Shown here in pieces: positions 20,667 through 47,235 of a stretch of DNA of 64,000 nt. Under the pieces are notes generated by a model. That model was not told the origin of the DNA. It saw nothing but the letters and a program-made list of their open reading frames with translations, and ran no database searches. The stretch comes from an uncultured Verrucomicrobiae bacterium (lineage in GTDB: Bacteria; Verrucomicrobiota; Verrucomicrobiia; Palsa-1439): NCBI GenBank assembly GCA_963712025.1, contig CAVQGJ010000002.1, positions 131,005 to 195,004 on the forward strand. Direction: 5' to 3'. The position numbers were made by a program, and so were the translations under genes. Within the stretch, counting starts at the first letter, position 1. Each line of letters begins with the position of its first letter.

Positions 20667-20670
20667 GTCC

Positions 20671-26824: not shown

Positions 26825-27085
26825 GGAAAACCCTTCTACATTGTATGCAAACTTGACATACGTTACGTGTTACACTGTTGCATCCCGCCGCAAGTGGCTT
26901 TCCTGACGATAGTTCTACCCGAGACTACTGCGAAAAGTCTACCTTACGTATGGGCTTGTTATGCCACAATTCGTTGCCCAAAGTCAATATAAATGCTCCG
27001 CAACCCCATCCATGGATGAGTGAATAGGCTCGATTGCGCGAATCGTGCCAACAACTGCCGCCGCATTTCCCACGGCTGCATGTAC

Positions 27086-28345: not shown

Positions 28346-29613
28346 GGATGCGCCGCCTCCTTCGCGCCATTCATACCGGTCACCTGCGCGTTTTCGATGA
28401 TGAACGGCGGGCCTTCCTTGGGAGTGACCTGGACGTTCTTGAGCTGAATTCCCTTGGCGTCTTCCACCCTCAAGCCTTTGGCAGCAGCGGTGATGTGGAC
28501 GTTTTCCAGGACGACGTCCGTAATCTGGCTCTCCGGCAATCCGAGAATAACGCCCGCCGATTTCTGGCAGGTGGCGGTCAGATTGCTGATGTGGATGTTG
28601 CGGTAGATCGGCGTGGTGTCGGTAACGGGCTGTGGCGCCGCGTCTTTGGGAGCCGTTTTCTGCGCGGGATCACCCGCCGAATTGCTCATGTAATAGCACG
28701 TCAATGAGATCGCGGGGTTCACGTTTTTCATGGTGATATCGGTGTAACGAATGTTCTCCACCAGGCCGCCCCGGCGCCGGTCCGATTTGATCCGAATCCC
28801 GTTCTCGGTGTCTTGAAACGTGCAATTCGTCACCAGCACGTTGTGCACGCCGCCCGCCGTCTCGCTGCCGATCGACATGCCATGCCCGTGTTGGAAAATG
28901 CAATCGCTCACCGTGATATTCTCGGTGGCAAACTCGCGCCCCGGGATTTTCCGGCCCGATTTGATGGCGACGTTGTCGTCACCGACGTCGATCCGGCACT
29001 TGGTGATCAGGACGTTCCGGCATGCGCCGGGATCGATCGCGTCGGTGTTCGCCGCACCGGCCGGGGCCAGTATCGTCACGTTTGAGATCACCACGCCATC
29101 GCAATCGTTGGGGACGAGGTGGAACTTGGGCGAGTTTTGGAGTGTGATGTTCTCCACTCGCAGGTTCTGGCAACCCGTCAACACAATCAGATTCGGCCGG
29201 GGCAGCGTGTATCCCGGTGTCTTGATGCGCGCGTCTTCGGCAGCCCCCCACCAATTTGCGCCCGCGCCGTCGATCGTCCCGCTGCCGGTGATTGTCACAT
29301 CGACCAGGTTCTTGCCGCCGATAAAGGGAATGAAGTCACCGCTACTCCTGGCTGCGAGCCAGTTCGTGCCCGATTTCAAAAAGGCCGACTGATCCGCCGT
29401 CGCCTGCAACGTCGTCCCTTCGTCGAGTTGCACGGCCGTTTTGGTGCGCACGGTGATCGGTTTGCTGAGATACGTGCCTGCGGGAAACCGGACAATCCCG
29501 CCCCCGGCGTTTCCGCATTCATCGAGCGCTTTCTGGATCGCCGCGGTGTCCAGCGTCTTGCCATCGCCTTTGGCGCCAAACTCCCGGACGTCAAACACCT
29601 TGCCCGGATGCAT
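28342..29613 (-). CDS. GH28 polygalacturonase (copy 1); its signal peptide lies upstream in another frame
   Basis: FGAKGDGKTLDTAAIQKALDEC, NTDAIDP, GDDNVAIKSG, HGHGMSIGSE, RIKS are GH28 motifs. A signal peptide MKTVNNSMRRKPVFRPVLCVLLSLACL.. starts at ATG 29725 but is out of frame. Confidence 0.85.
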   Translation of the reverse strand: MHPGKVFDVREFGAKGDGKTLDTAAIQKALDECGNAGGGIVRFPAGTYLSKPITVRTKTAVQLDEGTTLQATADQSAFLKSGTNWLAARSSGDFIPFIGGKNLVDVTITGSGTIDGAGANWWGAAEDARIKTPGYTLPRPNLIVLTGCQNLRVENITLQNSPKFHLVPNDCDGVVISNVTILAPAGAANTDAIDPGACRNVLITKCRIDVGDDNVAIKSGRKIPGREFATENITVSDCIFQHGHGMSIGSETAGGVHNVLVTNCTFQDTENGIRIKSDRRRGGLVENIRYTDITMKNVNPAISLTCYYMSNSAGDPAQKTAPKDAAPQPVTDTTPIYRNIHISNLTATCQKSAGVILGLPESQITDVVLENVHITAAAKGLRVEDAKGIQLKNVQVTPKEGPPFIIENAQVTGMNGAKEAAHP

Positions 29614-29838
29614 TGGCGTCCGCTGCCCAACCGCTACGGACAGGTAGACAGGCCAATGACAGCAGCACGCACAGAACCGGGCGGAAGACCGGCTTCCGCC
29701 TCATTGAATTGTTCACGGTTTTCATTTCTTACTACTGACTCCTTTCATTCAAATCAGCGTCGCCCTGAATGAACAGCAATGGCGGCAGGCCCGCCGCGTC
29801 GTTCGGTGTCGGCTACCCAAGCGGGCTGGTGCCCCCCG

Positions 29839-31205
29839 TCATTTCTGGGCGGGATCTTTCCAACCGATCACCTCGGCGTTATCGGTGATGACCGCGGGGC
29901 CTTCCTTGTTGGTCAACTGGACGTTCTTGAATTGAATCCCTTTGGCGTTCCTGACCAGAAAGCCGGTCGTGGCGGCGCTGATCTGGACATTTTCCAGGAA
30001 CACATTCGAGATGTAGCTCTCGGGCAGTCCGACGATGATGCCGGTCGATTTCTGACACGTAGCCTGCACGTTATTGAAGTAGATATTGCGAAAGACCGGC
30101 GTGTGTTCCGACTTCGCCTGCGTGGGATCGACCAACGGCGGCGGCCGCGGGACAGGATCGCCCGACGAGTTGTTCATATAATAGCAGGTCAGCGTGATCG
30201 CCGGGTCGACGTTATTCATGATGATATCGCTGTAGTGGATGTTTTCCACCACCCCGCCCCGCGCCGGTCCGATTTGATCCGAATCCCGTTTTCGGTGTCC
30301 TGAAACGTACAGTTCTTCACCACCACGTCATGCACACCGCCGCGCACCGCGCTGCCAATTGACATGCCGTGTCCGTGCAGAAACGTACAATCCGTCACCG
30401 TAATATTCTCGCAGGAAAACTCGCGGCTCGCCGCTTTGTGGTCCGACTTGATGGCGATGTCGTCGTCGCCCACGTCGAGCCGGCACTTGGTAATCAGCAC
30501 GTTCCGGCAATCAGTGGGATCAATGGCATCCGTGTTCGGTGAATGCGCCGGCGCCACAACCGTCACGTTCGAGATGATGACGTCTTCGCAATCCGTCGGG
30601 TCCAAATGCATACAGGGGCCGTTCTGCAACGTGACATCGCGTACGGTCAGGTTTTTGCATCCGGTGATGACCACCAGCTTCGGTCGGGGCTGCGTATACC
30701 CGGGTGTCTTGCGCCGCGCTTCCTCGGCGGAAGGCCACCATCTGCCGCCCGACCCGTCAATCGTGCCGGGGCCAACGATCGCCACATCGTGAATGTCTCT
30801 CCCACCCACAAACGGGATGAAGGAATTCGTGTGCTCGGGGTTCACGAAATCCTCCCGCTCATCCGTCGCCTTCAGGACCGCGCCCGCATCCAGTTTCATG
30901 GTCGTGCTGCTGCGCATGACAATCGGCTTGCTCAGGTATGTACCCGACGAAAACTCCACGGTGCCGCCGCCGGAGGTGCCGCACTCGTCGAGCGTTTTCT
31001 GGATCGCCGCGGTGTCGAGCGTCTTGCCGTCACCCTTGGCGCCAAACTCCCGGACATTGAATACTTTGCTGGATGCGCTGGCGGCCGGCGCGGTGGTATC
31101 CGCCGCCCAACTGCTACTGATGGCCAGACAGGCCCACGACAGCAGCACGCACAGGACCGGATGGAAGGCCGGCTTCCGCCTCATTGAATCATTCACGCGT
31201 TTCAT
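29839..31205 (-). pseudogene. GH28 polygalacturonase (copy 2) with an apparent 1-nt deletion near 30258-30265
   Basis: ORFs 30216..31205 (signal peptide plus catalytic core: NTDAIDP, GDDDIAIKSD, HGHGMSIGS) and 29839..30252 (C-terminal part). Copy 1 reads cgg cgc cgg ggc ggc where copy 2 reads cggcgcggggcgggg. Confidence 0.75.
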
Positions 31206-31241
31206 TCTTGCTTCTGACTCCTTTCAGTCAAATGGATTGAA

Positions 31242-32090
31242 TCACTTCTTCACAGCCAACTTCTGTTCCAGCCATGCGACCAACTTCTCTTTGTAGCTCG
31301 GGTCGAATTTGTCCCATTCGGTGATTCGATGCGGCGCGCCTTTGATCGTGACGATGTCGTTCGCGACGCCGTTATCCTTGAGCTTCGACATGAAGGCGAG
31401 GGTTTGGTCGTAGGGGACCGTCTTGTCAGCATCGCCCTGCACGAACAGAAATGGCGGCAGGCCCGGTTTGACGTAGTTGATTGCGGACATTTCCATCAAA
31501 AGCGCTCTCGTCGAATCGTCCGCCGTCTCGCGGCCAAACAGGGCTTGCAGCGATTTACTGAGGCCGCCGCGTCGTTCGGTGTCGGCCACCATATCCGTCG
31601 GTGGCGAAAAACCGACCACGGCTTGTACGCGTGTATCTTCCTTCGCCTGTACCGCGGCCAGACAGGCCAGTTGTCCGCCAGCGGAGTATCCCATCAGGGC
31701 CATGCGCTGCGGGTCGCCCTTGTACTCCGCGGCGTGGGCCTTGGCCCAGCGAATGGCGGTCTGCACGTCCTCGAAGCACGCCGGCCAGTGATTCGTCGGC
31801 GCCAGGCGGTAGTTGATCGAGAACCACGTAAACTCTCCGGACTTTGTCAGAGGCTCCAAGACCACGGTGATGTCCTTGTGTTTGTCACCAGTCATCCAAC
31901 CGCCGCCGTGCACCATGACGACCATCGGGAACGGCCCGGTGCCATCCGGGATATGCGCATCCAGCCGCAGGCTCTCACCCGACGCCCGGCCGTATTCGAT
32001 ATCCGGTTTGTCCTCGGCGAAGACAACGCCCGCGAACAAGGCGACCAGGGACAGCACTGCTCGAAACGTTCTAATGGAAGCTCCCGTCAT
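31242..32090 (-). CDS. secreted alpha/beta-hydrolase carbohydrate esterase (pectin acetyl/methyl-esterase candidate)
   Basis: From ATG 32090: signal peptide, HGGGW oxyanion motif, GYSAGG nucleophile elbow, C-terminal GDADKTVP..H. The specificity is inferred from the pectin context. Confidence 0.75.
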   Translation of the reverse strand: MTGASIRTFRAVLSLVALFAGVVFAEDKPDIEYGRASGESLRLDAHIPDGTGPFPMVVMVHGGGWMTGDKHKDITVVLEPLTKSGEFTWFSINYRLAPTNHWPACFEDVQTAIRWAKAHAAEYKGDPQRMALMGYSAGGQLACLAAVQAKEDTRVQAVVGFSPPTDMVADTERRGGLSKSLQALFGRETADDSTRALLMEMSAINYVKPGLPPFLFVQGDADKTVPYDQTLAFMSKLKDNGVANDIVTIKGAPHRITEWDKFDPSYKEKLVAWLEQKLAVKK

Positions 32091-32162
32091 CCGACGATTT
32101 CTCTTGCGCCAAATCAAAACCCTTCCCAGACTGTTTGGGAAGTTGAATCGAGGAGCATTTTC

Positions 32163-32795
32163 GTGCAGCCGATTCTTGAGAAACGAATCGTTCCCGTGGT
32201 CGTCATCGACAAGGCGGAAGACGCCGTGCCGCTGGCCGAGGCACTGCTCGCCAGTGGCCTCAACGTGATGGAGGTCACATTTCGGACGACCGCAGCCGCG
32301 GCGGCAATCCGCAACGTTCGCGAGGCGTTCCCGGCGATGTTCGTGGGCGCGGGTACGATCCTCGACCAGGACCAACTTCGTCGCGCCATCGATGCGGGCG
32401 CGCAATTCGGCGTCGCACCGGGCCTGAACGAGACAATCGTCTCAAAGGCGCTGGCCTTGGAACTGCCGTTCGTCCCCGGCGTGATGACGCCCTCCGACGT
32501 CGAACGCGGGCTGGCCCTGGGCTGCAAGCTCCAGAAGTTCTTCCCCGCCGAAGCCGCCGGCGGGGTGAAGATGCTCCAGGCGTTCGCGGGTCCGTTCGGG
32601 CCGGCCGGAGTGAAGTTCATTCCCTTGGGCGGCATCAACACCGGCAATGCCCGTGATTATCTGGCGCTGCCGATTGTCGCGGCCATCGGCGGATCGTGGA
32701 TGGTGGATCGCAAACTGATTGCACAGAGGAACTGGAAGACCATCCGCGAGTTGACTGCCGAAGCTGTGCGAATCGCGGCTGCATCTGCCGTTTGA
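32163..32795 (+). CDS. eda: 2-dehydro-3-deoxy-6-phosphogluconate (KDPG) / 4-hydroxy-2-oxoglutarate aldolase
   Basis: GTG 32163: VQPILEKRIVPVVVIDKAEDAVPLAEALLASGLNVMEVTFRT..GAGTI..KFFPAEAAGG is a full-length Eda match. The 5' part of ORF 31329..32795 is antisense to the esterase. Confidence 0.9.
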   Translation: MQPILEKRIVPVVVIDKAEDAVPLAEALLASGLNVMEVTFRTTAAAAAIRNVREAFPAMFVGAGTILDQDQLRRAIDAGAQFGVAPGLNETIVSKALALELPFVPGVMTPSDVERGLALGCKLQKFFPAEAAGGVKMLQAFAGPFGPAGVKFIPLGGINTGNARDYLALPIVAAIGGSWMVDRKLIAQRNWKTIRELTAEAVRIAAASAV

Positions 32796-33137: not shown

Positions 33138-35078
33138 TTGGAAAATCAATTTGCCCGTCAATACATCGCCATTTGGATTATGAGTAACATGATAATGCGC
33201 GCGGCACCCGGCGGCGACTCCACGGCCACTCGTGCCGCGGTGAAATCCGTGGCCGAGCTTGTGGCCCTGCAAGCGGCTGGCAAACCTGCTGCGGTGGCCG
33301 TGGCATCTGCCACCCGCGTCTTGAGCTACGGGGAACTGGATGCCAGAGCCGATGCACTGGCCGCCCAACTCCGTGGTCTGGGTGTCGGCCCGGACGTCGT
33401 GGTTGGACTGTGCATTCCCCGTTCGCCGGCCATGGTCGTTGCGGCGCTCGCGATTCTTAAAGCCGGCGGAGCGTATCTGCCGCTGGATCCATCCTATCCC
33501 GTGGCCCGGTTGGCATTCATGTTGGATGATGCGCAGGTTCCGGTGTTGATCACCGCGCATTGCGCGAAGGACCAAGCCCCTACCGGTGCGTACCAAGTCA
33601 TCACACTGGATGATTCAGGGCGCATCGTCGAATCCCCACCCCTGTTGCCTCCCGCTCGCCCGGAGCCGGAGTTTTCACTCAAGAACCTCGCCTACGTGAT
33701 CTACACGTCAGGTTCAACGGGCCAGCCGAAGGGTGTCGAGATTACACACGAAAGCTTGTTGAATTTGGTGCACTGGCATCAGCACGCGTTCCGCGTCACG
33801 CCGGCAGATCGCGCCAGCCAGGTCGCCAAGGTGGGATTCGATGCCGCCGTATGGGAAGTCTGGCCGTATTTGACCGTCGGCGCCAGCCTCTACACGGTCG
33901 ACGAAGAAACGGTGGGCGACCCGGAGTCACTGCGCGATTGGCTGGTAGCGCAGAGCATCACCATTGGTTTCATTCCCACGCCAATGGCGGAACAGCTCTT
34001 GATGTTGCCGTGGCCGGCAAAGACCGCGTTGCGCACGATGCTCACGGGAGCCGATACACTCCACTATTACCCGCCCGCCGCACTTCCATTCGAGTTGATC
34101 AACAATTACGGCCCGACCGAATGTACGGTGGTGACCACGTCGGGGCCGGTGCATGCGAACGGCACGACGGATCGTCTTCCCGCCATCGGGCGGCCAATCG
34201 AAAAAATGCAGGTCTACATTTTGGACGAATCCGGCCAGCCGGTATCGTCGGGTGTGCCGGGCGAACTTTACATCGGCGGCGTTGGGCTGGCACGGGGCTA
34301 CCGGAACCGGCCCGAGTTGACCGCGGCGCGGTTCGTGTCGAGTCCGGTTGGCGCCGAACCAAAGGGACGACTCTTCAAAACGGGTGACATGGCCAAGTTT
34401 CTCCCCGACGGGCAAATCGCCTTCCTGGGGCGCACCGATGAGCAGGTTAAGGTGCGCGGCCACCGCGTCGAACCCAACGAAGTCACCGCGGTGCTGAACG
34501 GACATCCACAGGTGCGGCAAAGCACCGTTGTCGCTCGTGAACTCGCCCCGGGCGATGTCCAACTGATCGGCTATTTCGTTGCCGCGCCCGAGTCGCAACC
34601 CACACCCGGTGAGTTGCGCGATTTCCTCGGCGCCCGTCTGCCGGATTACATGATCCCGGCCATGTACGTGCGGTTGGAGAAACTGCCGTTGACCCCGAAC
34701 GGGAAGGTGGATCGAGCGGCCCTGCCCGTGCCGGACGACACCAACACCCTGCGGGACAGCGCGTTCACCGCCCCCCGGACCGACATGGAAAAAGCCGTGG
34801 CCGGCATCCTGGGTCGTCTCCTGGGACTCGAAAAAGTGGACGTGGAAGAGAACTTCTTTGCGCTTGGGGGTCACTCGCTTCTGGGAGCGCAACTCATGGC
34901 CCGTGTGCGCGACACCTTCGGGGTCGAAGTGCCCCTGAGGATGCTGTTCGAGTCTCCCACGGTGGCCGAATTGTCCGCCGAAATCGAACGACTGCTTGTC
35001 GCCAAACTTCAGGCGACGAGCGAAAGCGACGTACAGCGCCTTCTCGATTCGACCCCGCAGACGGAAGCCGGAGCCTAG
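33138..35078 (+). CDS. NRPS adenylation + peptidyl-carrier didomain protein (A-T)
   Basis: A3 LAYVIYTSGSTGQPKGV, A4 FDAAVWE, A5 NNYGPTE, A7 FKTGD, A8 GRTDEQVKVRGHRVE, A10 PNGKVDR. PCP motif FFALGGHSLL. Start is TTG 33138 or ATG 33180. Confidence 0.9.
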   Translation: MENQFARQYIAIWIMSNMIMRAAPGGDSTATRAAVKSVAELVALQAAGKPAAVAVASATRVLSYGELDARADALAAQLRGLGVGPDVVVGLCIPRSPAMVVAALAILKAGGAYLPLDPSYPVARLAFMLDDAQVPVLITAHCAKDQAPTGAYQVITLDDSGRIVESPPLLPPARPEPEFSLKNLAYVIYTSGSTGQPKGVEITHESLLNLVHWHQHAFRVTPADRASQVAKVGFDAAVWEVWPYLTVGASLYTVDEETVGDPESLRDWLVAQSITIGFIPTPMAEQLLMLPWPAKTALRTMLTGADTLHYYPPAALPFELINNYGPTECTVVTTSGPVHANGTTDRLPAIGRPIEKMQVYILDESGQPVSSGVPGELYIGGVGLARGYRNRPELTAARFVSSPVGAEPKGRLFKTGDMAKFLPDGQIAFLGRTDEQVKVRGHRVEPNEVTAVLNGHPQVRQSTVVARELAPGDVQLIGYFVAAPESQPTPGELRDFLGARLPDYMIPAMYVRLEKLPLTPNGKVDRAALPVPDDTNTLRDSAFTAPRTDMEKAVAGILGRLLGLEKVDVEENFFALGGHSLLGAQLMARVRDTFGVEVPLRMLFESPTVAELSAEIERLLVAKLQATSESDVQRLLDSTPQTEAGA

Positions 35079-35083
35079 TCACC

Positions 35084-36352
35084 GTGACCGCCAAACCGCA
35101 CGTTTCGGCCGGTGAGAGGAAGAAGGCTTCGGACCTGAGCTTGTTTCAACTGCTTGACCCCGAGGTCCTCGCCGACCCCTATCCGTTGTACCACCGGCTC
35201 CGCCGCGAAGACCCGGTGCATTGGGACCCGTACCTGCATTCCTGGGTCGTCACGCGCTACGATGACGTGGTCCGGGTGTTGCGCGATTTTTCCGCCGACC
35301 GCACGCCGACCGCCGAGCAATTGACCGCCATGGATCTTTCGGCGATGAACCCCATCGCCAAAGTCATGGTCAAGCAGATGTTATTTCTGGATCCTCCGTC
35401 CCATACGCGCATCCGCGCCCTGGCGTCCGCCGCGTTCACCCCGCAACGGGTGGAAGTCCTGCGGTCGCACATTCGGGACATTGTCCGGGATTTGCTGGGC
35501 AAGGTGAAGCAGAAGGGACGCGCCGACCTGATCGCCGATCTGGCCGAGCCGCTCCCGTGCATTGTGACGGCGGAAATGCTCGGGGTACCGGTCGAAGACC
35601 ATCGCCAATTGAAGTTGTGGTCGCAGGATTTCGCCGAGATGCTCGGCAACTTCCAGCACAACCCCGACCGCGTCCCGAAGATCCTGAAGAGCACGCAGGA
35701 AATGACCGCCTATTTTCACCGGGCCATGCACTGGGACAAGTTGCGGCCGGATGGTTTGGTCGCTTCGTTGATGAACGCCCGGGTGCAGGGAGATCGTTTG
35801 ACCGAGGAAGAAGTGGTCGCCAATTCCATCGTGACCATGATCGGCGGACAGGAAACCACGACCAACCTCATCGGCAACGGCACGCTCTCGCTGTTGCGCA
35901 ATCCCGACCAGCTCGAGAAGCTTCGCGGAGACCTTTCCCTGATTCCCTTCGCAACGGAAGAGTTGCTGCGGTATGAGAGCCCCAGCCAGCACACCGCGCG
36001 GCTCACCCCGGAAGACACCGAGCTGGGAGGCAAACAGATTCGCAAACGCCAGGCGGTCATGGCGATCATGGCGGCGGCAAACCGCGATCCGGACCGGTTC
36101 CCCGATCCCGATCGACTGGACATTACCCGCCAGGACAACCGGCATGTGGCCTTCGGATACGGCGCCCATTACTGTTTCGGCGCGCCGTTGGCGCGGATCG
36201 AGGGCCAGATTGCTTTCGAGGAGATGATCCGCTTCTTCCCGCATTGGTCGCTGGAGCCCGGGCTGCTGACGTGGCGGACCAATTCGGGCCTGCGCGGCTT
36301 GACGTCGTTGGGGGTAAACTTTACCGGTAACAACCGTCCGCAACAGACATGA
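35084..36352 (+). CDS. cytochrome P450
   Basis: I-helix GGQETT, EELLRYE (ExxR), heme ligand loop FGYGAHYCFGAPLAR. Starts 6 nt after the A-T gene. Confidence 0.9.
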   Translation: MTAKPHVSAGERKKASDLSLFQLLDPEVLADPYPLYHRLRREDPVHWDPYLHSWVVTRYDDVVRVLRDFSADRTPTAEQLTAMDLSAMNPIAKVMVKQMLFLDPPSHTRIRALASAAFTPQRVEVLRSHIRDIVRDLLGKVKQKGRADLIADLAEPLPCIVTAEMLGVPVEDHRQLKLWSQDFAEMLGNFQHNPDRVPKILKSTQEMTAYFHRAMHWDKLRPDGLVASLMNARVQGDRLTEEEVVANSIVTMIGGQETTTNLIGNGTLSLLRNPDQLEKLRGDLSLIPFATEELLRYESPSQHTARLTPEDTELGGKQIRKRQAVMAIMAAANRDPDRFPDPDRLDITRQDNRHVAFGYGAHYCFGAPLARIEGQIAFEEMIRFFPHWSLEPGLLTWRTNSGLRGLTSLGVNFTGNNRPQQT

Positions 36353-36473
36353 CCAAAGCCGAATCCATTCCGAACACGGGGTCGCTCTCCACGGCCAGGC
36401 AACGGCTGTTGGAAAAGCGATCGCGTGGAGGTCAGACTGCGCGCCACGCCGAATTACCACCCGCGAGGGCCTC

Positions 36474-39071
36474 ATGAGCGGTAGTAGCCTCCAGCGGGCC
36501 GTGCCGGCCAATCCGACGGGATCTCAGCCACCCGCCGCCGGCCCTAAATCTTCACACAGGTCGAAAGTCTTGCTGGGTCAGGTCCAAAAGGAGAACCCGG
36601 AATTGCGGGCTGAAGACGCGTTTATCGTGCCGGCATGGTTTTCGGAACAGAAAGTATGGTTGCGAGACCCACTGCGCTCGGACAGCTACGTGTACAACTT
36701 CCCGGTTCTCCTCCGCCTGCGCGGGCCACTCAACGAAAGAGCGTTGCGGGGCGGGCTTCAGCAGATCGTACGACGCCACGAAGTGTTGCGCTCCGTCTTC
36801 CGCATCTTGGATGGAGAACTCGTGCAGATTGTCGTGCCCGCCCCAGAGCTGTCCCTCCCGGTCACAGACCTGAGTGATTTGCCCGAGTCCGCGCGCGATG
36901 CGCGAGTGCGGGAACTCGCCCTCGAAGAGGCCAATCGTCCCTTCGATCTGGCGCAAGGCCCGGTGTTTCGTGGCCGGCTCATTCGTCGGACGACAGGCGA
37001 TCACATCCTGCAACTCACGACCCACCAACTCGTGTACGACGAGTGGTGCACGGGCGTCTTGATCCGCGAGTTATCCGCGTCGTATCAAGCGTTCGCAGCA
37101 GGGACGACGCCGACCGAACCGGGCCCGGCGCATCCGTATGGCGATTTCGTGCGCTGGCAGGAGGCGCGGTTCCAAGGCGCCGCGTTGGAATCAGAGTTGG
37201 CCTACTGGAAACAGCAGCTCGACAGCCCGACCGGCTTCCAACACCTGCCAACCGACCACGCGCGTCCGGCGGTGCCCACGCACCGGGGCGCGAGGGAAAC
37301 GGCTGCGCTGCCGGCCGACCTGGCGAACTCGCTGAAGGTGATGAGCCGGCAGGAGCGGGTCAGCCTGTTCATGGTCTTGCTCGCCGGATTCCAGTGTCTG
37401 CTGCACCGTTATTCGAACGACGAGGAGATCGGCGTGGCCTCGTGCGTGGCGAACCGCGCCTTGCTGGAGGTTGAAGGATCAATCGGCCGGTTCGCCAACC
37501 ACACGGTCCTCCGCACCAGTCTGTCCGGGAACCCCAGCTTTCGCGAGTTGCTCAAGCGCGTGCGGGAGGTTGCCCTGAGCGTCTATTCGCACCAGGAACT
37601 GCCGTTCGCCGCAGTGTTGGAGAAGGCGGGCAACGGCTCGGGTCCCACCCGTCACCCGCCATTTCAAACGATGTTCATCCTGCAAAACGCGCCCAAGGAA
37701 ACCTGGCAACTTCCGGGACTGGAGGCAACCTGGCTGCCGCTGTACCCGGGGACCACGACGCATGACTTGATCGTCTGGCTGACGAGCGAGCCCGCGCTCG
37801 AAGTTACCCTGGAGTACAGCACCGACTTGCTCAACGCGGCGACGATGAGACGGATCCTCGACGACTACCAGTCGATCCTGGCGGCAATGGCGAAGGACCC
37901 CGGGGCGCTCGTCAACGCCATACCGATTTCCGCCGCGCCGGTTCCCAAGCCCGATCACGCACAGCCACCCCTCTCAACATCGAGCAACGGCACGAGATCC
38001 GGGGACAACGCTCGCGTCGAATCACGGTTGATCGAACTCTGGGAAGCGGCATTCGGGTTGCATCCAATTCGCGCGGACCAAAACTTCTTCGAACTGGGTG
38101 GAGATTCTCTCCTCGCGGCGCGGTTGTTCACGCAAATCGAGAAAGTCTTCAAGACAAAACTGCCGTTGGCCACGCTCGTGGAGTCGCCCACGATCGGGCA
38201 ACTGGCGGAGATTCTTTCCGCACCGGCAACGCATTCGCCGAGTTCCTGCCTGGTCGCGGTCCAGCCCAAGGGAACGCAGCCTCCGCTGTTTTGCGTCCAC
38301 GGGCACGCGGGCGAAATCTTCTACTGCTGGAACCTGTCCCGATGCCTGGGAATGGACCAGCCGCTTTTCGGGTTGAGGGCCAAGGGCCTCAGCGAGAAGA
38401 CCGCTCATTACACCGTCGAGGAGATGGCCGCCCATTATCTCCAGGAGATTCTCGCCGTTCAGCCACACGGGCCGTATTACCTCGGCGGCTACTGCTTTGG
38501 CGGCCTGGTGGCGTACGACATGGCCCGGCTGTTGAGCGCCCAGGGCGAAACCGTGGCACTCCTCGCCTTGTTCAATACCCCGGCCCCAAGATCCCTGGAT
38601 GGTTGGCCGTTGCAGCAGACGTATCTCACGAAGAGAATCGCCCACGAGTTGCGGAAGCTCGGCGAACTCGGCATCCGCGACAAGCTGGAGGCTCTCGGCG
38701 CGAAGACGGCGGGGCTCGGCCGGCTCGCTCTCGGTACCATCAAGGAAACCGTCTGGAAGATTTCCGTCAAATACCCGCTCGGCCGCGCCGAGAAATGGAC
38801 GCAGCGATTGTTGGACATCCCCGATATCAACATTGCCGCGGCCAAGGCCTACGCTCCCGGTCCCTACCCGGGCCGGGGCATCCTGTTCCTCACGGAAGAA
38901 GCACCGTCGCTCTACAGCATCGACCCGAAGTCCGGCTGGACTCCCCTGATCAAAGGCGGAATCGAGGCGTACGACGTCGAAGGGGACAACATTTCCATGT
39001 TTGACACGCGCTACATCGAGGTCCTGGCCGGGAAATTGAAGTCCTGCATCAACCGCGCGCACAACGCCTAG
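36474..39071 (+). CDS. NRPS condensation-like + carrier + thioesterase-like protein (C*-T-TE*) with atypical catalytic motifs
   Basis: C2 RRHEVLRSVF, C4 YGDFVRW, C5 IGRFANHTVLRT are present, but C3 reads THQLVYDEW. PCP motif FFELGGDSLL. TE region LFCVHGHAGE..GGYCFGG..LALFNT..GDNISMF. Confidence 0.9.
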   Translation: MSGSSLQRAVPANPTGSQPPAAGPKSSHRSKVLLGQVQKENPELRAEDAFIVPAWFSEQKVWLRDPLRSDSYVYNFPVLLRLRGPLNERALRGGLQQIVRRHEVLRSVFRILDGELVQIVVPAPELSLPVTDLSDLPESARDARVRELALEEANRPFDLAQGPVFRGRLIRRTTGDHILQLTTHQLVYDEWCTGVLIRELSASYQAFAAGTTPTEPGPAHPYGDFVRWQEARFQGAALESELAYWKQQLDSPTGFQHLPTDHARPAVPTHRGARETAALPADLANSLKVMSRQERVSLFMVLLAGFQCLLHRYSNDEEIGVASCVANRALLEVEGSIGRFANHTVLRTSLSGNPSFRELLKRVREVALSVYSHQELPFAAVLEKAGNGSGPTRHPPFQTMFILQNAPKETWQLPGLEATWLPLYPGTTTHDLIVWLTSEPALEVTLEYSTDLLNAATMRRILDDYQSILAAMAKDPGALVNAIPISAAPVPKPDHAQPPLSTSSNGTRSGDNARVESRLIELWEAAFGLHPIRADQNFFELGGDSLLAARLFTQIEKVFKTKLPLATLVESPTIGQLAEILSAPATHSPSSCLVAVQPKGTQPPLFCVHGHAGEIFYCWNLSRCLGMDQPLFGLRAKGLSEKTAHYTVEEMAAHYLQEILAVQPHGPYYLGGYCFGGLVAYDMARLLSAQGETVALLALFNTPAPRSLDGWPLQQTYLTKRIAHELRKLGELGIRDKLEALGAKTAGLGRLALGTIKETVWKISVKYPLGRAEKWTQRLLDIPDINIAAAKAYAPGPYPGRGILFLTEEAPSLYSIDPKSGWTPLIKGGIEAYDVEGDNISMFDTRYIEVLAGKLKSCINRAHNA

Positions 39072-39811
39072 CCAATCTCCCACTGGAAACATTGGAACGC
39101 GACGTTGTCGGTTTCGACCGCTGCCGCCCCCAAGTAGCCCGGTGCCGGCGTCAGATGCTCGAGGGTCCAGTGTCGGGAAACATCGGGGTCGTCGAAGGCG
39201 CGCAAAATGGCGGCCGGTTCGCCGGGAGACAAACTCACTTCCACTCGATCCAACCCGTACGACACACCTTCGCCCCGTCCCTTCAGGTACGCTTCCTTGC
39301 GGGTCCAACAACAAAAGAACGCTTCCAACCGCCGGTCGGAAGACAGTGCGCGAAGCTTCTGGAATTCGTTCGGGGAAAAATGGCCCTTCGCCAGATTTTC
39401 AACGTCGATATCCTCGCGGACGCGCTCGATATCGACTCCGATCCTGCGCCCCCGCGCAAAGCCGAAAAGCCCCACGTCCGCGGAATGGGAAACGCTGAAG
39501 CGCGCGGAAGCGGCCTGCGCCCCGCCGTCGAGGCCGGGTTTGCCGAACTTGTCGTAAGTGAAACGGAGTTGGCCCGGTTCGGTTTCCACATACGCCCCCA
39601 ACAAGGTCCGCAACGATGCCCGAGCGGCCATGTACCGCCGGGCATCCACACCGCTCAAGAATTGGCTGGCGCGGGCTCGTTCGTCGGGCGACAGAATCGA
39701 CCGGAAGCCCGGCAATTGCTCCGGCACGAGGTCGAGAGCAACGACCCATAGATGCGCCTCGGCATTGCCCAGGTCGCCCGGCTGTGTGCGGGATGGCCAC
39801 GGACTTGTCAT
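39068..39811 (-). CDS. Sfp-type 4'-phosphopantetheinyl transferase
   Basis: From ATG 39811: ..FSVSHSADVGLFGFA..IGVDIE..WTRKEAYLKGRGEG.. (PPTase motifs). Convergent with the C-T-TE gene; the two stop codons share the palindrome CTAG at 39068-39071. Confidence 0.85.
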   Translation of the reverse strand: MTSPWPSRTQPGDLGNAEAHLWVVALDLVPEQLPGFRSILSPDERARASQFLSGVDARRYMAARASLRTLLGAYVETEPGQLRFTYDKFGKPGLDGGAQAASARFSVSHSADVGLFGFARGRRIGVDIERVREDIDVENLAKGHFSPNEFQKLRALSSDRRLEAFFCCWTRKEAYLKGRGEGVSYGLDRVEVSLSPGEPAAILRAFDDPDVSRHWTLEHLTPAPGYLGAAAVETDNVAFQCFQWEIG

Positions 39812-39915
39812 GGTTGGATCCTCTCTATACCATTGACCTGACCGTGAGAGAAAGGTTAGAAGTCGCTCCGGTCGTAGCGGATGAAGGGGCGAAGGCAATC
39901 AGCGATACGAGATTC

Positions 39916-41164
39916 ATGACGATGCGCGACGCGGCATCGCCGTGGCACCACGCGTTCCGCAGGTGGGCCAGGTCATCGGTGCTTGTCATGGCTGCCGTGT
40001 TGGTCATCGGGCTGGGAGTGGTGACCGTCTATCGTGCCGCCTACTCGCCCGATCACCGGTCTGATTTCACCGTGTATACCGCCGCCGGCGATGCTGCTCT
40101 CGCCGGCGCGGACCTCTACAAGGCGCAAAACCCCCGCAGGTTATCCTACGTGTATCCGCCTCCGTTTGCCATCCTCATGGTCCCATTCTCCCTGCTGCCA
40201 GTGTCCCTGGGTTCGCTCGCGTGGTATGTCCTCTCGGTGTTGCTTACGTTCTGGTCGCTGCGAATGTGCGTCGCCATGGTGCAAGAGGAGCGGCGCTTCG
40301 ACGGCGATACATTCTGGATGGCGGTATTGGCGGCCGTGCTGGTGCTGCCGTGGTTCATCCAGGGAACGGCGGAAGGCCAGGCAACATTGTTGATGTCGTG
40401 GCTGGTGGTGGCGGCGTTATATTGGCAGACCAAGAACCGTCCTGATCCTCGGCGCAACCTGTCTGGCCGGCGCAATCCTGGTGAAAGTGTTCCCGGCAGT
40501 GTTGCTCGCCTATTTCGGCTGGCGTCAGAAGTGGCGGTTTGTCGTCGCCACGCTCGTGCTGGTTGTCATCGGCGCCCTCGTGCCACCCGCCATGGTATTC
40601 GGCTGGAGCAGAACCTTGACCTACTGGCGCGAATGGGCCGCCGTGGTCGGAGGGCCATCGCTAGGCAACGAGCAGCAGCGTCGCGGAAGTCCCGTGGACG
40701 GTCAGTTGCTCAGCCCGTACAAGGTGCGAAGCCAGACGTTGGAGGCCGTTTGCTGGCGGCTGACGGGCGCCGGGCACGCGCGGGAGATCGCCGTGACGAC
40801 CGCCGTCGCCATGCTGTTGATCATCGGGCGCATCGGATGGCGGTCGCAACCGCAGAGCGAATCCCTGATCGTGTCAGCGATATTGGTCTGGATGATCCTG
40901 GCGGCGCCACTTTCGGAGTTTCATTATCTCCTTGTCTTATTGCTCCCAATGATGGCAATGGTCTTTGTGGCAGTCCATGAGCCGGACGGGGTGACCCGCT
41001 GGCTGGTGCGCGTGACGTTGGCCGTGTTTGCCGTGGCCAGCCTGCTGACGGTGGGGTTTGTGCCGCTGCAGCAAATGGGGCTGCTGTGTTGGGCAATGAT
41101 CGGGTTGTGGGGCGTGCTGTTGACGGTTGTGGTCCGTCAGGCACGAATGAACGGTTCGGAATGA
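39916..41164 (+). pseudogene. GT87/DUF2029-like polytopic GT-C glycosyltransferase with an apparent frame change near 40435-40445
   Basis: ATG 39916: MTMRDAASPW.. followed by TM segments. DFTVYTAAGDAALAGADLY..YVYPPPFAILMVP is the PimE/DUF2029-type N-terminal loop. The sequence continues in frame 2 (..LILGATCLAGAILVKVFPAVLLAYFGW..). Confidence 0.65.
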
Positions 41165-42069
41165 CCCGTGTGGCTGGCCGGCGACGCCCAGGCCGATCCA
41201 CGCGGGAAACAGCAAGGAGGGTTATGCGCCAGGTGAAGGATCAGGGCCAGAGTCAGATCACCATGCCGTTTGCCGACGAAACGATGGTACACGATGACAG
41301 CCGCGGGAGCGGAACCGATTCACAATGGTTCGGTTCCCTCGTTTCCACGCCGATTTCGCTGGTGCTGCCGATGTTCAATGAAGGTCCGGCCGTCGACGTC
41401 ACGTTGAAACACGCGATCGAAGGTCTCGAACGCAAGTTCGCGGATTTCGAGATTGTTGTGGCCGACGACGCCAGCACCGACGGGTGCGCCGAGAAAGTGG
41501 AACAGTGGACCCGCAGCGACCCGCGAATCCGACTGGTGCGCCTCCCGCACAACCAACGATTTGGGGGCGCGCTGTGCGCCGGTTTCCAGGCCGCTTCGAA
41601 AGATTTTCTCGTGTACACCGATTTCGATCTGCCGATCCGGTTGGACAGCCTGCCGCGCCTGCTGGAAGCGTTTTCGGACGCGGATGTGTTGACCGGTTAT
41701 TCCGATGCGGGCGCCAAATACGCCAATTGGAAATCGAGGGTGATCTCCCTCGGCTACAATTCGATGGTGCGCGCGTTATTCGGGTTGCGGCTGCGCGACA
41801 TCAATTTCGGATTCAAGGCGGTGCGGCGGTCGGTTTGGGAGAAAATGCGGCTCCGTTCCCGCAGCCCATTTGTCGATGCCGAGTTGTTCGTGCAGGCCGA
41901 GCACCTCGGCTACCGCGTGAAAGAGGTCCCCGTGCCCTTTGTGCAACGGCAGTTGGGAGCGTCCCACATCCGCCGACTGGATGTCATCGCCGCCACCATG
42001 TTCGACATGGCGAAACTGCGCCTGACGTTGTCGCGCCGGCTGGGGCGGCGCGCCGACCCCCGCGCCTAG
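41161..42069 (+). CDS. GT2 glycosyltransferase, polyprenyl-phosphate sugar synthase type (Dpm1/ArnC/GtrB-like)
   Basis: ISLVLPMFNEGP..FEIVVADDASTDG..YTDFDLP (DxD). ATGA overlap with the preceding GT-C gene. Confidence 0.85.
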   Translation: MTRVAGRRRPGRSTRETARRVMRQVKDQGQSQITMPFADETMVHDDSRGSGTDSQWFGSLVSTPISLVLPMFNEGPAVDVTLKHAIEGLERKFADFEIVVADDASTDGCAEKVEQWTRSDPRIRLVRLPHNQRFGGALCAGFQAASKDFLVYTDFDLPIRLDSLPRLLEAFSDADVLTGYSDAGAKYANWKSRVISLGYNSMVRALFGLRLRDINFGFKAVRRSVWEKMRLRSRSPFVDAELFVQAEHLGYRVKEVPVPFVQRQLGASHIRRLDVIAATMFDMAKLRLTLSRRLGRRADPRA

Positions 42070-42070
42070 A

Positions 42071-42892
42071 TTGTTCGTGAAGCTCCTGATCGTCAACGCC
42101 GACGATTTCGGGCTCGACCCGGCCGTCAACGCCGCAATCACAAAAGCCCACACCGACGGTCTGTTGACCAGCGCCAGTTTGTTGATCGCCGCGCCTCATG
42201 CGGCGGAGGCAGTCGAGTTTGCCCGGTCCCACCCGGAACTTGGTGTCGGCCTTCATCTTTGCCTGGTGGACGGTCGCTCTGCGGCGCTTTCGGATAAAAT
42301 CCCCGCGCTGGCAACCGAGGCGGGAGAATTGCCGTCGAGTCCGTTCGCTCTCAGCGCCCGATTGTTGTCCAACAAGAAACTGGATACAGACATCGAAATC
42401 GAACTGCGGGCGCAAATCAGCCGGTTCATGGCCACGGGTCTGCGTCCGACCCACCTCGACACGCACCAGCATATGCACTTGCACCCGCGTGTGTTGGCGG
42501 TTGTCACCCGTCTGGCGCGCGAGCACGGCATCACCTTCATCCGCGCCCCGGTCGAGCCCCTCTGGCCGGCGATCCACTGCGGCTGGCAACGGTTGCCGCG
42601 GAAACTTGCCCGCTGGACGATATTCGCTGCGCTTGGTTCGTGGACGAAGCAACAACTGCGCCGCCAGGGCTTTCATACGGTCGATCGCGCGGTCGGCGTG
42701 CTTGACCCCGGGCATCTGACCGAGCCGTTCCTCGCGTCGTATCTCCCGGAATTGCCGGACGGACTCACGGAAATGTTCTTCCACCCCGCCGACCGCCCGG
42801 CCGAACCCCTGCTCCGGATGCAGCGCGGCTACGAGCACGCCGCCGAATTGCAGGCCCTCTGCAGTCCGCGCCTGCGGCAAGCTCATCAATGA
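42071..42892 (+). CDS. YdjC/ChbG/HpnK-family carbohydrate deacetylase
   Basis: KLLIVNADDFGLDPAVN and LDTHQHMHLHP are metal-site motifs of the YdjC family. Start is TTG 42071 or GTG 42077; it lies 2 nt after the GT2 stop. Confidence 0.85.
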   Translation: MFVKLLIVNADDFGLDPAVNAAITKAHTDGLLTSASLLIAAPHAAEAVEFARSHPELGVGLHLCLVDGRSAALSDKIPALATEAGELPSSPFALSARLLSNKKLDTDIEIELRAQISRFMATGLRPTHLDTHQHMHLHPRVLAVVTRLAREHGITFIRAPVEPLWPAIHCGWQRLPRKLARWTIFAALGSWTKQQLRRQGFHTVDRAVGVLDPGHLTEPFLASYLPELPDGLTEMFFHPADRPAEPLLRMQRGYEHAAELQALCSPRLRQAHQ

Positions 42893-43085
42893 GTCCGGGA
42901 TTCATCTCACCAATTTTCGGGAGTTGTCACTCCCCGGCTCCTGACTTCTGACTCCCGTTGCCGCCATCCACGGCGATTCGCATCCATGGTTCGCCGTTCT
43001 GTGGTTGACAGCTACTGTGCAGCGGACAAAAATCGGTACCGTAAAAATAGCCGCGCTGGCACCCAACTCGACGCCCAAGCATGAC

Positions 43086-43799
43086 GTGAAAAAGAATTCT
43101 GTGAACCTGAAGGCACTACTATTCGGTCTTGGCTTCTCCCTGCTGCTGGTTGAACAAACGCTCCACGGCCAGCAAGGCGATGTTGACCGTAATCGACTCG
43201 CCGAACTCCGCGCCAACGCGGAAACAGGCGATGCCAAAGTCCAGAATGAACTGGGCCTCCGCTATGCCAACGGCCAGGGCATAACGACGAATGTGGCGGA
43301 GGCGGTGAAGTGGTTTCACAAGGCTGCCGACCAGAATTTCGCCGCGGCTGAATTTAATCTGGGCGTCTCCTACGCCACCGGCCAGGGCATAACGACAAAT
43401 GTGGCGGAGGCGGTGAAATGGTTTCGCAAGGCCGCCGACCAGAATCTCGCCAAGGCCCAATTCAATCTGGGCCTCTGCTACGAGGAAGGCCGCGGCGTGA
43501 CCAAAGATGAGGCAGAGGCGGTGGCATGGTTTCACAGAGCCGCCAGCCAGAATCTCGCCGTGGCTCAATACCTACTGGGCGACTGCTACGCCAGGGGCCG
43601 CGGCGTGACGAAGGATGAGACGGAGTCGGTGAAATGGATCGCTCTGGCGGCGGCGCAAGGCATGGCGGAAGCGAAGGCGGACATTCCCTGGATTGAAAGC
43701 CACGTGCCGGAGAAGCAAATAGCGGAGGGGAAACAGCGGGCGATGGATTGGCTCGAAAGGCAGCGGAGGATGTCCTCCACAAGCGATTTCAATCCTTGA
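43086..43799 (+). CDS. secreted Sel1-like repeat (SLR) protein
   Basis: GTG 43086 gives the signal peptide (M)KKNSVNLKALLFGLGFSLLLV. Five units of ..A.(K)W(F/I).KAA.Q....A.(F/Y)NLG..Y..G.G... Confidence 0.8.
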   Translation: MKKNSVNLKALLFGLGFSLLLVEQTLHGQQGDVDRNRLAELRANAETGDAKVQNELGLRYANGQGITTNVAEAVKWFHKAADQNFAAAEFNLGVSYATGQGITTNVAEAVKWFRKAADQNLAKAQFNLGLCYEEGRGVTKDEAEAVAWFHRAASQNLAVAQYLLGDCYARGRGVTKDETESVKWIALAAAQGMAEAKADIPWIESHVPEKQIAEGKQRAMDWLERQRRMSSTSDFNP

Positions 43800-43878: not shown

Positions 43879-44925
43879 TTACTGGCGAGCTTGGAGTTGC
43901 GTGAGCGCGCTCCGCGCCTCGGCGTAATCCGGCTTGATCCGCAGGGCCTGCTCGTAGTGCACAATCGCCTCTGGCACCCGGCCCGCCTGCGCCAAAGCGT
44001 TCGCCAGATTGCAGTGCGCCTCGACGGAATCGGGCTTGATCCGCAACGCCCGTTCATAATGCCCGATGGCATCGCTGACCTTGCCCTCCCGCAAGAAGGC
44101 ATTTCCCAAATTGATGTGCGCCTCGGCGTAATCGGGATTGATCCGCAGCGCCTGTTCGTAGTGGTCAATAGCCTCTTCACGCTTGCCGGTGCGATACAAA
44201 GCCAGCCCGAGGTTGCTGTGCGCTTCGGCGTATTGGGGATTGATCCGAAGCGCCTGCTCCAAATGCTCGATCGCTTCCGGCATCCTGCCCAATCTCATCA
44301 AAGCGATCCCCAGATTGTTGTGGGCCGCAGCACTATCGGGTTCGATCCGTAATAGCTGCTCGTAGTGGGCGATGGCTTCGTCGAGCTTTCCCGTTTGCGC
44401 CAACGTCGCCGCCAGATCGTAGTGCGCCTGGGCGTAATCGGGATTAATCCGCAGGGCCTGCTCGTAGTGGGCAATGGCTTCGTCGAGCTTTCCCGTTTGC
44501 GCCAAAACCACCCCCAAACCGGTGTGTGCTTCGGCGTAATCGGGCTTGATCCGCAGGGCCTGCTCGTAGTGGGCGACGGCTTCCCCGATCTTTCCCGCTT
44601 GTGCCAAAACCGCTCCCAGATTGTTGTGCGCCGCGGCGTAATCGGGAGTAATCCGCAGAGCTTGCTCCCAGTGACTGATCGCCTCCGGGAGCCTACCCAG
44701 ACGGGCCAGGGCGAGCCCAAAGTCGTTGTGCGCTTTAGAAGAATCAAGTTTGATCCGCAGGGCCTGCTCGTAGTGCCCTATCGCCTCTTGAATTCTGCCC
44801 GATTGCACCAGGGCATTTCCCAGGTTGATTTGCGCATCGGCCAAATCGGGATAGAGGCGCAGTGCCCGCTCGAACTGCCGAATCGCCTCCTGCACCTGTC
44901 CCGACGCTTGTAGTTGCATCCCCCA
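43879..44925 (-). repeat. in-frame tandem TPR units (about 10 x 102 bp) of paralog B
   Basis: Units of AI.HYEQALRI.PDYAEAH.NLG..L...G...EA are repeated with strong nucleotide-level similarity. Confidence 0.8.
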
Positions 44926-47044: not shown

Positions 47045-47235
47045 GGCAAAGACGCCTCGACTGCGTCGATGACGATTCTAAGCCTGCAAAAAGGATCTGT
47101 CATTGAAGAAACGGCGCATCATTTGGAAGGTCCCGTTGGTTGCACCGTCGGCAAGCCTTCGGCGCGTTTACGCCACCAGCCGGTCCGGGGCGCGTACCGT
47201 TGAACTCGGCTCCAGGGCTACGCTCACGCTTCGGC

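Follow-up and report, generated by a model that had tools for sequence, protein, structure and literature searches.

The X-domain of glycopeptide antibiotic synthetases, a condensation (C)-like domain of nonribosomal peptide synthetases (NRPSs), carries HRxxxDD where canonical C domains carry HHxxxDG, and the streptothricin protein ORF18, which joins a C domain to a thiolation (T) carrier domain, is an active amide synthase with the motif HQxxxDM (PMC11546977). In syringomycin biosynthesis a split module is formed by SyrB1, an adenylation-thiolation (A-T) protein, SyrB2, which tailors the amino acid held on T, SyrC, a Cys aminoacyl shuttle, and the C-T-thioesterase (C-T-TE) part of SyrE (PMC8949500). 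Interface (I) domains accompany beta-hydroxylases in siderophore and myxoglucamide NRPSs, and are dispensable in myxoglucamide (PMC13638107). Here we analyse a cassette at positions 33138 to 39811 of a 64,000-nucleotide stretch, called the window below, of contig CAVQGJ010000002.1 (assembly GCA_963712025.1) from an uncultured Verrucomicrobiae bacterium, which shares features with these systems. The cassette is a derived member of a conserved, uncharacterised and self-contained NRPS-type family of soil Verrucomicrobiota/Acidobacteriota-type metagenomes. It appears to encode a split NRPS module in which a C-like domain has been repurposed and a cytochrome P450 acts in trans as the tailoring enzyme, in a family that is sizeable and unstudied.

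Four genes make up the cassette. The A-T protein occupies 33138..35078 on the plus strand (Pfam AMP-binding, 3.4e-77, AMP-binding_C and PP-binding, 8e-17; NCBIfam AA-adenyl-dom, 413 bits against a cutoff of 317); these are the limits of the maximal open reading frame (ORF), and the true start is probably a later ATG. It is followed on the same strand by the P450 (35084..36352; Pfam p450, 1.9e-26) and by an 865-aa C-T-TE protein without an A domain (36474..39071), in which Pfam places Condensation at residues 59-481 (1.8e-75), PP-binding at 518-580 (5.3e-15) and Thioesterase at 604-731 (3.5e-22), the TE-like alpha/beta-hydrolase domain as a whole covering 38241..39068. A 4'-phosphopantetheinyl transferase (PPTase) of Sfp/HetI type (39068..39811, minus strand; Pfam ACPS, 1.3e-17, and AASDHPPT_N, 6e-08; NCBIfam HetI 187 bits, under the model's cutoff) is convergent with the C-T-TE gene, overlaps it by 4 nt, and adjoins it in most related loci with enough flank to tell. 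The core motifs of the A domain and the PPTase, and the Ser sites of both carriers, can be read in the translations. The window thus has the parts of a split module, a stand-alone A-T protein and an A-less C-T-TE protein encoded together. An earlier sequence-only reading of the locus had called the same gene set and domains, and these calls are borne out by the ORF listing, Pfam and NCBIfam; all five motif strings that it quoted translate exactly, at the coordinates given below. It was also right that there is no second A domain: homologue searches of the 64-kb window found no further A, C, T, TE, P450 or PPTase homologue, nor any other NRPS gene. Its description of four tightly packed genes holds for domains and spacing, but the PPTase gene lies on the minus strand and is not co-directional with the rest.

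The likeness to the X-domain of teicoplanin Tcp12 (PDB 4tx2, 4tx3, 6m7l) lies in a C fold with the second His lost and an acidic residue for Gly, in a tie to a P450 acting on a carrier-bound substrate (here read from gene adjacency and fusions), and in a terminal unit that also holds T and TE. The motifs, HRxxxDD in the X-domain, H-x-xxx-D-D in the family and HQxxxDE in the window, with Gln and not Arg, agree in kind, not in identity. The X-domain sits between T and TE in a C-A-T-X-TE order and recruits several cross-linking P450s to a heptapeptide, whereas in the cassette the C-like domain precedes T, the protein lacks an A domain, and a single Leu would be held on a separate A-T protein. Since module position and sequence affinity both differ, the cassette's C domain is not to be equated with an X-domain. 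Streptothricin ORF18 resembles the cassette in its A-less C-T build, in the Gln at the second-His position and in its stand-alone adenylating partners; it differs in that it is active on a soluble amine and has neither a TE nor a P450 partner. I domains are C-like, non-condensing and tied to an oxygenase that works on a carrier-bound amino acid, but that partner is an alpha-ketoglutarate/Fe(II) dioxygenase, and the domains are embedded in multimodular NRPSs.

The syringomycin system offers a different set of parallels: an A-T protein that stands alone, a partner enzyme that alters the amino acid held on its carrier, a C-T-TE lacking an A domain, and a Cys alpha/beta-hydrolase possibly moving aminoacyl groups between carriers. 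The cassette, however, has no upstream modules, no SyrC, a P450 instead of a non-heme iron halogenase, a TE without Asp and His, and a C domain without the second His; because the window holds no upstream assembly line, we do not read it as a Syr-type module. With the NovH/NovI, NikP1/NikQ and BpsD/OxyD/Bhp systems, which make beta-hydroxy amino acids, the cassette shares an A-T didomain, an adjacent P450 and an alpha/beta-hydrolase. Those systems release their product through a canonical Ser-His-Asp hydrolase and have no C-like domain and no second carrier, and the cassette P450 is closest to CYP107-type enzymes (BioI, PksS, PikC), not to OxyD or NikQ. The extra C-T, the lack of a hydrolytic TE and the affinity of the P450 therefore set it apart from a NovH/NovI-type cassette. 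ObiF (beta-lactone), SulM (beta-lactam) and AB3403 (4zxh) have, like the cassette, Cys for Ser at the nucleophile elbow, but they are complete C-A-T-TE modules, whereas the cassette has no A domain and carries Asn at both the Asp and the His position. The TEs of ObiF and SulM reportedly keep the triad Asp and His, and AB3403 keeps Asp at the aligned position; with both residues missing, the cassette's TE is not a Cys-TE of the ObiF/SulM type. Lactacystin (PMC11730586), the hangtaimycin domain HtmB2-C_T and the myxoglucamide I domain (PMC13638107) were set aside as different systems. Literature searches found no characterised homologue of the cassette. The earlier reading had not recognised the arrangement from any described cluster; it is not unique, for its family has more than 119 members.

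This family was collected by protein search, which gave more than 119 full-length relatives of the C-T-TE protein at 41-80% identity, 119 of which were aligned. Nearly all are soil-metagenomic, and the few that are named belong to Verrucomicrobiae, Terriglobales, Candidatus Angelobacter and Pyrinomonadaceae. Scans of GTDB genomes and of metagenomes with family patterns returned mostly generic multimodular NRPS matches, and about 25 loci were informative. Closest to the window are L085 and L086 (78-79% protein and 80-84% nucleotide identity), followed by L001 (71% protein identity); all four have genes for GH88, GH28, an esterase and KDPG (2-keto-3-deoxy-6-phosphogluconate) aldolase upstream, and PPTase, GT87, GT2 and YdjC or LpxR genes downstream. 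Judged by these comparisons, the core of the family is a stand-alone Leu-type A-T protein, a P450 and a C-like protein without the second His, here called C1, to which many members add an A-less C-T-TE and an adjacent PPTase. The window itself has the Leu code, an adjacent P450 (at least 64% identity to the window's P450 being the threshold for the family) and a His-less C-like domain beside the P450. Farther out in the family the A-T/P450 pair stands before a complete C-A-T-TE(Ser) module, whose C domain reads HQxxxDG in L156 and HH in L164, and in others it stands ahead of larger NRPSs.

The pairing of A-T protein and P450 is kept in 14 loci. The specificity code of the A domain, taken out by an alignment whose code positions were anchored on the GrsA sequence, is DAWFLGNVVK, starting with the D-A-W that had already been read from the sequence; it is identical in 14 of 14 A-T partners (13 cassette partners and L174), although these proteins are just 51-85% identical overall. 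We take DAWFLGNVVK to be the classical L-Leu code of the Stachelhaus table. The A-T protein is accordingly predicted to activate L-Leu. The P450 is the most conserved protein of the cassette, with 92-94% identity to the closest relatives and a dN/dS of 0.05-0.09 against them; its heme motif FGYGAHYCFG, the EXXR segment EELLRY and the I-helix segment GGQETT are readable in the translation. Its best matches among PDB sequences are 8yhn, BioI, PksS, TamI and PikC, which makes it CYP107-like, and its best solved relatives do not include OxyD, NikQ or P450sky, so that beta-hydroxylation is not established. A route of the pulcherriminic acid kind, through cyclo(Leu-Leu), was considered and rejected: the NCBIfam model of cyclodipeptide-associated P450s gives just 187 bits against a cutoff of 500, so that this route has no specific support. 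The suggestion of a carrier-protein-dependent P450 system is supported by the pairing of the same Leu-code A-T protein with the P450 in every relative examined, while the chemistry of the P450 is something that we infer.

What distinguishes the window from its closest relatives is the absence of C1. L085, L086 and L001 all carry C1 as a stand-alone Condensation gene of 488-489 aa between the P450 and the C-T-TE gene, and at least 110 such stand-alone C proteins, 51-84% identical, make up the C1 family. Among 110 of them the motif reads H-[Q/R/L]-xxx-D-G, with Gln in 101, Arg in 7 and Leu in 2, the second position never being His. C1 is a paralogue of the C domain fused in the C-T-TE protein (31% amino-acid identity). 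Two lineages, separate from each other, have it joined to the C-terminus of the P450, namely L003/L004 (two independent assemblies) and P0197, and in L174 a triad of A-T, P450 and C1 occurs without any C-T-TE, within a glycan-type locus that also has genes for a sugar transferase, a polysaccharide deacetylase, a sulfotransferase, FemAB-like proteins and GT4s. The constant presence of a His-less C-like domain beside the P450, together with two fusion lineages, is independent comparative evidence that the two are functionally linked.

C1 was lost from the window by an in-frame internal deletion that kept translational coupling. By blastn the window is colinear with L086, and also with L085, save for one jump, in which window 36417->36449 corresponds to L086 6606->7976. 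What is left is a mini-ORF of 42 codons at 36349..36477 on the plus strand, identified by blastn against the relatives and by its terminal peptides: about 23 codons from the start of C1 and about 10 from its end survive, its end peptides match C1 of L085 and L086, and the net loss is 446 codons, in-frame. Both ATGA overlaps are kept, one between the P450 stop and the start of the remnant, the other between the remnant stop and the C-T-TE start. As C1 is usual in the family and deleted here, the window is a derived variant.

It follows from the deletion that the His-less domain of this cassette is the fused C domain of the C-T-TE protein, with HQ. Its C3 motif THQLVYDEW (37020..37046, plus strand, by translation) has Gln185 where the second His would be, Glu190 for the Gly and Cys192 for the Ser after Trp, while the first His (H184) and the Asp (D189) are kept. 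In phmmer searches of PDB sequences tHQlvyDEw aligns with mHHmivDGw of DhbF, Txo1 and Txo2, and in the AlphaFold2 (AF2) model of the protein (pLDDT 84.6, built on 119 relatives) H184 closes strand 176-184 ahead of helix 190-208, which is the canonical position. The domain belongs to Condensation by 254.8 bits against a cutoff of 30.6 (PF00668), with Foldseek TM-scores of 0.74-0.87 to C domains, and its C2, C4 and C5 motifs are intact; HQxxxDE is not the HHxxxDG of a canonical LCL domain. No member of the family alignment departs from H184 or D189. At position 185, 83 members have H, 22 T, 9 D, 2 Q, 1 F and 1 S, and position 190 is Asp in 108 of 119, so that the family motif is H-x-xxx-D-D. The closest relatives read HHLVYDDWS, against which the window shows the changes H185Q, D190E and S192C. 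The downstream carrier motif FFELGGDSLL (T2; 38085..38114, plus strand, by translation) has the phosphopantetheine attachment site Ser545, conserved in at least 90% of the family.

Where C1 is absent, the fused C domain tends to lack the second His. We scored 15 loci in which an A(Leu)-T gene stands beside an A-less C-T-TE, the P450 being present in all but L091. Where C1 is present, separate or fused (L001, L085, L086, L003, L096, L091), the fused C domain reads HH in 6 of 6; where it is absent, position 185 is non-His in 8 of 9, namely T in L169, L087, L092, L090 and L171, D in L172, S in L173 and Q in the window. By a neighbour-joining (NJ) tree the T, D, S and Q states arose separately, through at least four independent substitutions. 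This pattern means that every scored cassette save L100 has one His-less C-like domain right after the P450. L169, L171, L172 and L173 are four-gene cassettes without C1, with a non-His C3 and with Cys/Asn/Asn in the TE, a layout that is evidently stable in at least four loci other than the window.

Related loci show further variants. L171 (P0008) lies at the genomic site of the window cassette, in the order esterase, aldolase, A-T, P450, C-T-TE, PPTase; its C-T-TE falls in the HT clade of the NJ tree, and it has no C1 remnant. This pattern suggests cassette replacement or recombination at a conserved site. Acidobacterial loci (L006, L011, L101-L106, L113; P0095, P0097, P0101) encode, after a C-A-T module, C-C-T-TE proteins of 1330-1350 aa that have two C domains in tandem and a Cys TE but lack an A domain, possibly the ancestral form of the C1 plus C-T-TE arrangement. 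In P0032 and P0051 the same C-T-TE type is fused to an N-terminal KR domain, and in L170 (P0103) it stands beside stand-alone A and T proteins, an ATP-grasp enzyme, an N-oxygenase-like enzyme and polyketide synthase parts. From the KR fusions and the context of L170, the Cys-only C-T-TE would be a reusable terminal unit beyond the Leu/P450 cassette.

The TE domain, too, departs from the canonical residues. It belongs to Thioesterase by 80.2 bits against a cutoff of 26.4 (PF00975), and the order of secondary structures in the AF2 model fits the fold. Its nucleophile elbow GGYCFGG (38484-38504, plus strand, with the Cys674 codon at 38493-38495) aligns by phmmer with GYSLGG of EntF and GGWCFGG of AB3403; the Asp-site segment LALFNT (38562-38579, plus strand, Asn701 codon 38574-38576) aligns with GLLDT of EntF and VMIDT of AB3403; and the His-site segment GDNISMF (38982-39002, plus strand, Asn839 codon 38988-38990) aligns more weakly with the His segment of EntF. 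Relatives have His in the column of Asn839 (GDH, GTH, GEH), co-occurring with Asp at 701, which identifies that column as the one of the catalytic His. In the model C674 lies at the elbow between strand 668-673 and helix 675-689, N701 directly past strand 694-700, and N839 in the loop that leads from strand 830-834 to the last helix, 848-864; His609 and His611 sit in the VHGH segment of the oxyanion hole. In place of a Ser/Asp/His or Cys/Asp/His triad the window thus has Cys674, Asn701 and Asn839, and neither its C nor its TE domain has a general-base residue at the canonical position.

These TE states are shared by much of the family. The nucleophile is Cys in 113 of 119 relatives; at the Asp site 88 have Asn and 26 Asp, and at the His site 62 have Asn and 16 His. 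Members with Asp often have His as well, as in a clade with HT/Cys/Asp/His (n=8), and there is a Ser/Gly/His clade (n=5). The dN/dS of the TE is 0.08-0.16, and the domain is conserved as much as the C domain. A family-wide Cys/Asn/Asn with low dN/dS speaks for a conserved, selected state and not a decayed one; going by purifying selection and conservation, the TE is therefore non-canonical yet probably functional. The structure of AB3403 (PDB 4zxh), a four-domain NRPS with an elbow nearly identical to that of the window's TE, could be a structural template for the Cys-TE.

The residue substitutions proposed by the sequence-only reading have accordingly held up: Gln for the second His and Glu for Gly in C3 are found in the hidden Markov model alignment, the family alignment and the AF2 model, and Ser to Cys, Asp to Asn and His to Asn in the TE are found in the alignments and the model, none of which places a canonical second His or a Ser/Asp/His triad at the catalytic positions. 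A search of homologues and neighbourhoods for the same substitutions found Cys, Asn and Asn of the TE to be typical of the family, the second-His position of C3 to vary, and its Gly to be replaced mostly by Asp. The broader statement that every alignable catalytic residue is replaced is true of Gln185, Glu190, Cys674, Asn701 and Asn839 but not of C3 as a whole, where H184 and D189 are kept. That the TE is non-canonical stands, while its being simply inactive is unlikely with Cys/Asn/Asn conserved under purifying selection. The idea of a degenerate C-like domain as a docking platform for the P450 gains from the His-less C-like domain found beside or fused to the P450, but the HQ-type C domain of streptothricin ORF18 is active, so that a 'dead docking platform' is not established.

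Our preferred explanation, to which as a whole we give a probability of about 0.45, is that the window holds a derived family member in which C1 was lost, the His-less fused C domain stands in for it, and Leu oxidation is combined with a relay through a Cys-only TE. The PPTase would prime T1, the carrier of the A-T protein, and T2; the A domain would load L-Leu onto T1, and the P450 would oxidise the T1-held Leu, hydroxylation being the likeliest reaction. The His-less C-like domain, here the fused C domain in the place of the lost C1, would receive T1, hold the P450 and the carrier together, and hand on the oxidised leucyl group rather than catalyse canonical His-dependent peptide bonding. 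The leucyl group would then move to T2 and Cys674 by thiol-thioester exchange. Because the TE has no general base for water, we propose that it is a non-hydrolytic relay or holding site, release then occurring through an amine or another strong nucleophile. In their logic the closest precedents for this scheme are the glycopeptide X-domain, the split module of syringomycin and the I domains. In this explanation the C domain of the window's C-T-TE lost its own second His (H185Q, with D190E and S192C) once C1 had gone, and we read its excess of changes as a functional shift or local relaxation that followed.

Several observations weigh against this explanation. The association of C1 absence with loss of the second His, with a Fisher p of 0.0014, is drawn from just 15 loci and is uncorrected for phylogeny, and L100, a distant C1-less relative, keeps HH as the lone exception. 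Among the top 60 PDB matches of the P450 none is described as an aminoacyl-carrier-protein hydroxylase. Nor is the C domain nearer to X-domains than to ordinary LCL domains: the X-domain 4tx2 is matched by phmmer at 6e-36 and the ordinary C domains of DhbF and Txo at 1e-67, and Foldseek searches with the AF2 model do not separate X-domain, C_T and LCL folds, all at TM 0.74-0.87. The near-invariant Gln of the 110 C1 proteins suggests a functional active site, and in ORF18, which acts on a soluble amine, the corresponding Gln matters (PMC11546977). Finally, among the singleton changes of the window's C-T-TE, 14 hit positions that do not vary within its clade and are kept in at least 80% of the rest of the family, while each of six sisters has 1-5 of this kind, and the GT87 gene past the PPTase is frameshifted; the window copy could be losing function.

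The observations on C1 and ORF18 lead to an alternative that we consider unlikely but the most serious of the rivals, namely that the C-like domains are active, non-canonical condensation enzymes coupling the (oxidised) Leu-S-T1 to a nucleophile. The acceptor might be a Leu that the same A domain loads on T2 in trans, in which case intramolecular aminolysis would free the dipeptide from Cys674 as a diketopiperazine; or it might be an amine, either soluble or part of a glycan, for example an amino sugar freed by nearby YdjC or polysaccharide deacetylases. Intact C2, C4 and C5 motifs would suit such activity, as would the HQxxxDG C domain that heads a complete C-A-T-TE module in L156, the triad of L174 that lies in a glycan locus without a second carrier, and the GT87, GT2 and YdjC or LpxR genes beyond the PPTase in the window's clade. 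Position 185 of the fused C domain, however, takes T, D, S, Q and F, a freedom that catalytic residues seldom show; T2 has no available A domain; glycan genes are missing from cassettes L169, L172, L173 and L087; and the fusion of P450 and C1 is also expected of a docking role. The variation at position 185 and the fusions speak for the adaptor reading. We think it improbable that the family follows a new NRPS logic, in which an obligate HQxxxDG partner of a Leu P450, a Cys-only TE relay and interchangeable C-like domains work together on what is perhaps the decoration of a glycoconjugate. Under that logic the fused C domain would drop its catalytic His and take over whenever C1 is lost, the window representing an early stage of the hand-over, and the pathway could end in oxidised leucyl groups on a glycoconjugate of the cell envelope and not in a free peptide; both details share the low likelihood of the whole.

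That the cassette of this genome is a decaying remnant is likewise improbable. On this account the loss of C1, a gene kept in the three closest relatives, broke the pathway, and the active-site changes in the C-T-TE reflect early relaxed selection and not adaptation. Conserved-site singletons make up 14 of 32 in the window and 15 of 97 in the sisters (Fisher p = 0.0026); 12 of the 14 lie in the C domain, H185Q comes in addition to them, three changes fall within the 9-residue C3 motif, and a smaller locus set gives the same C-T-TE excess, 9 against 2-3. dN is slightly raised in the C and TE domains, which would point to decay, and GT87 (window 39802-41161, plus strand) carries a +1 T insertion near 40446 that does not lie in a homopolymer and splits the gene into two frames. 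Against decay stand four intact, full-length cassette ORFs with pairwise dN/dS to the three closest relatives of 0.05-0.24 for every gene and domain, well below 1, and an A-T protein with 0 changes at conserved sites, against 2-6 in sisters, in the smaller locus set. The deletion is in-frame with P450 to C-T-TE coupling kept, the layout without C1, with a non-His C3 and with Cys-Asn-Asn is stable in L169, L171, L172 and L173, and nothing ties GT87, which is intact in L085 and L086 and lies past the convergent PPTase gene, to the cassette pathway; its split in the window reflects either pseudogenisation or a sequencing error. Decay of the cassette as a whole, for which neither dN/dS nor the conserved sites of the A-T protein give support, is kept as a minority rival. 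It is very improbable that the missing C1 and the GT87 frameshift are artefacts of assembly or sequencing and that the true genome has five genes. The contig is of metagenome type, and C1 and the fused C domain, being paralogous, might confuse an assembler, but the junction lies wholly inside C1 and in-frame, with both gene ends and the ATGA overlaps intact, the N-terminus of the fused C domain is complete, and 31% identity is far too low for a collapse of the two, which is therefore unlikely; recombination between them was rejected on the same evidence. The changes H185Q, D190E and S192C are moreover independent of any indel.

The surroundings of the cassette are mixed. After GT87 come genes for a GT2 glycosyltransferase and a YdjC-type, sugar deacetylase-like protein (window 41086-42892, plus strand), in an order syntenic in L085 and L086; L001 has an LpxR gene in place of YdjC, and the cassette loci L003 and L174 carry sulfotransferase, deacetylase and acyltransferase genes. 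These glycan-gene neighbours may hint that the product of the cassette decorates a glycoconjugate. Upstream, at 19359-32795, lies a pectin/uronate utilisation block with UxaE, UxaC, GH88, two GH28, an esterase, KDPG aldolase and a 1494-aa protein with Ig, PKD and pectate-lyase-like domains; it is syntenic with Verrucomicrobia relatives and probably unrelated to the cassette. Downstream there is a Sel1-repeat protein (43005-43799, plus strand), followed on the minus strand at 43879-51283 by three large TPR-repeat proteins (636, 711 and 573 aa) and a 498-aa protein without a Pfam match. The stretch from ~52000 to 61310 has a low GC content, 0.53-0.57 as against about 0.61, and ends at the gene of a large serine recombinase (59673-61298), the 3' end of which overlaps a tRNA-Asn (61235-61309, minus strand); with helix-turn-helix and SRAP genes and several ORFs without a Pfam match, it looks like an integrated mobile element.

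If the pattern holds, the family would show that a condensation-like domain has been turned into a P450 partner a second time, independently and outside the glycopeptide antibiotics, and that a conserved alpha/beta-hydrolase 'TE' can operate with Cys as its only triad residue. These two points would bear on the role of the second His of HHxxxDG and on how non-hydrolytic release or relay works. The window offers a natural 'C1 knockout' for comparison with intact relatives at 80-84% nucleotide identity. The family is common in uncultured soil Verrucomicrobiota and Acidobacteriota, and with four or five genes and its own PPTase it is tractable for heterologous expression. Thus, the cassettes may be a source of oxidised-leucine building blocks or tools.

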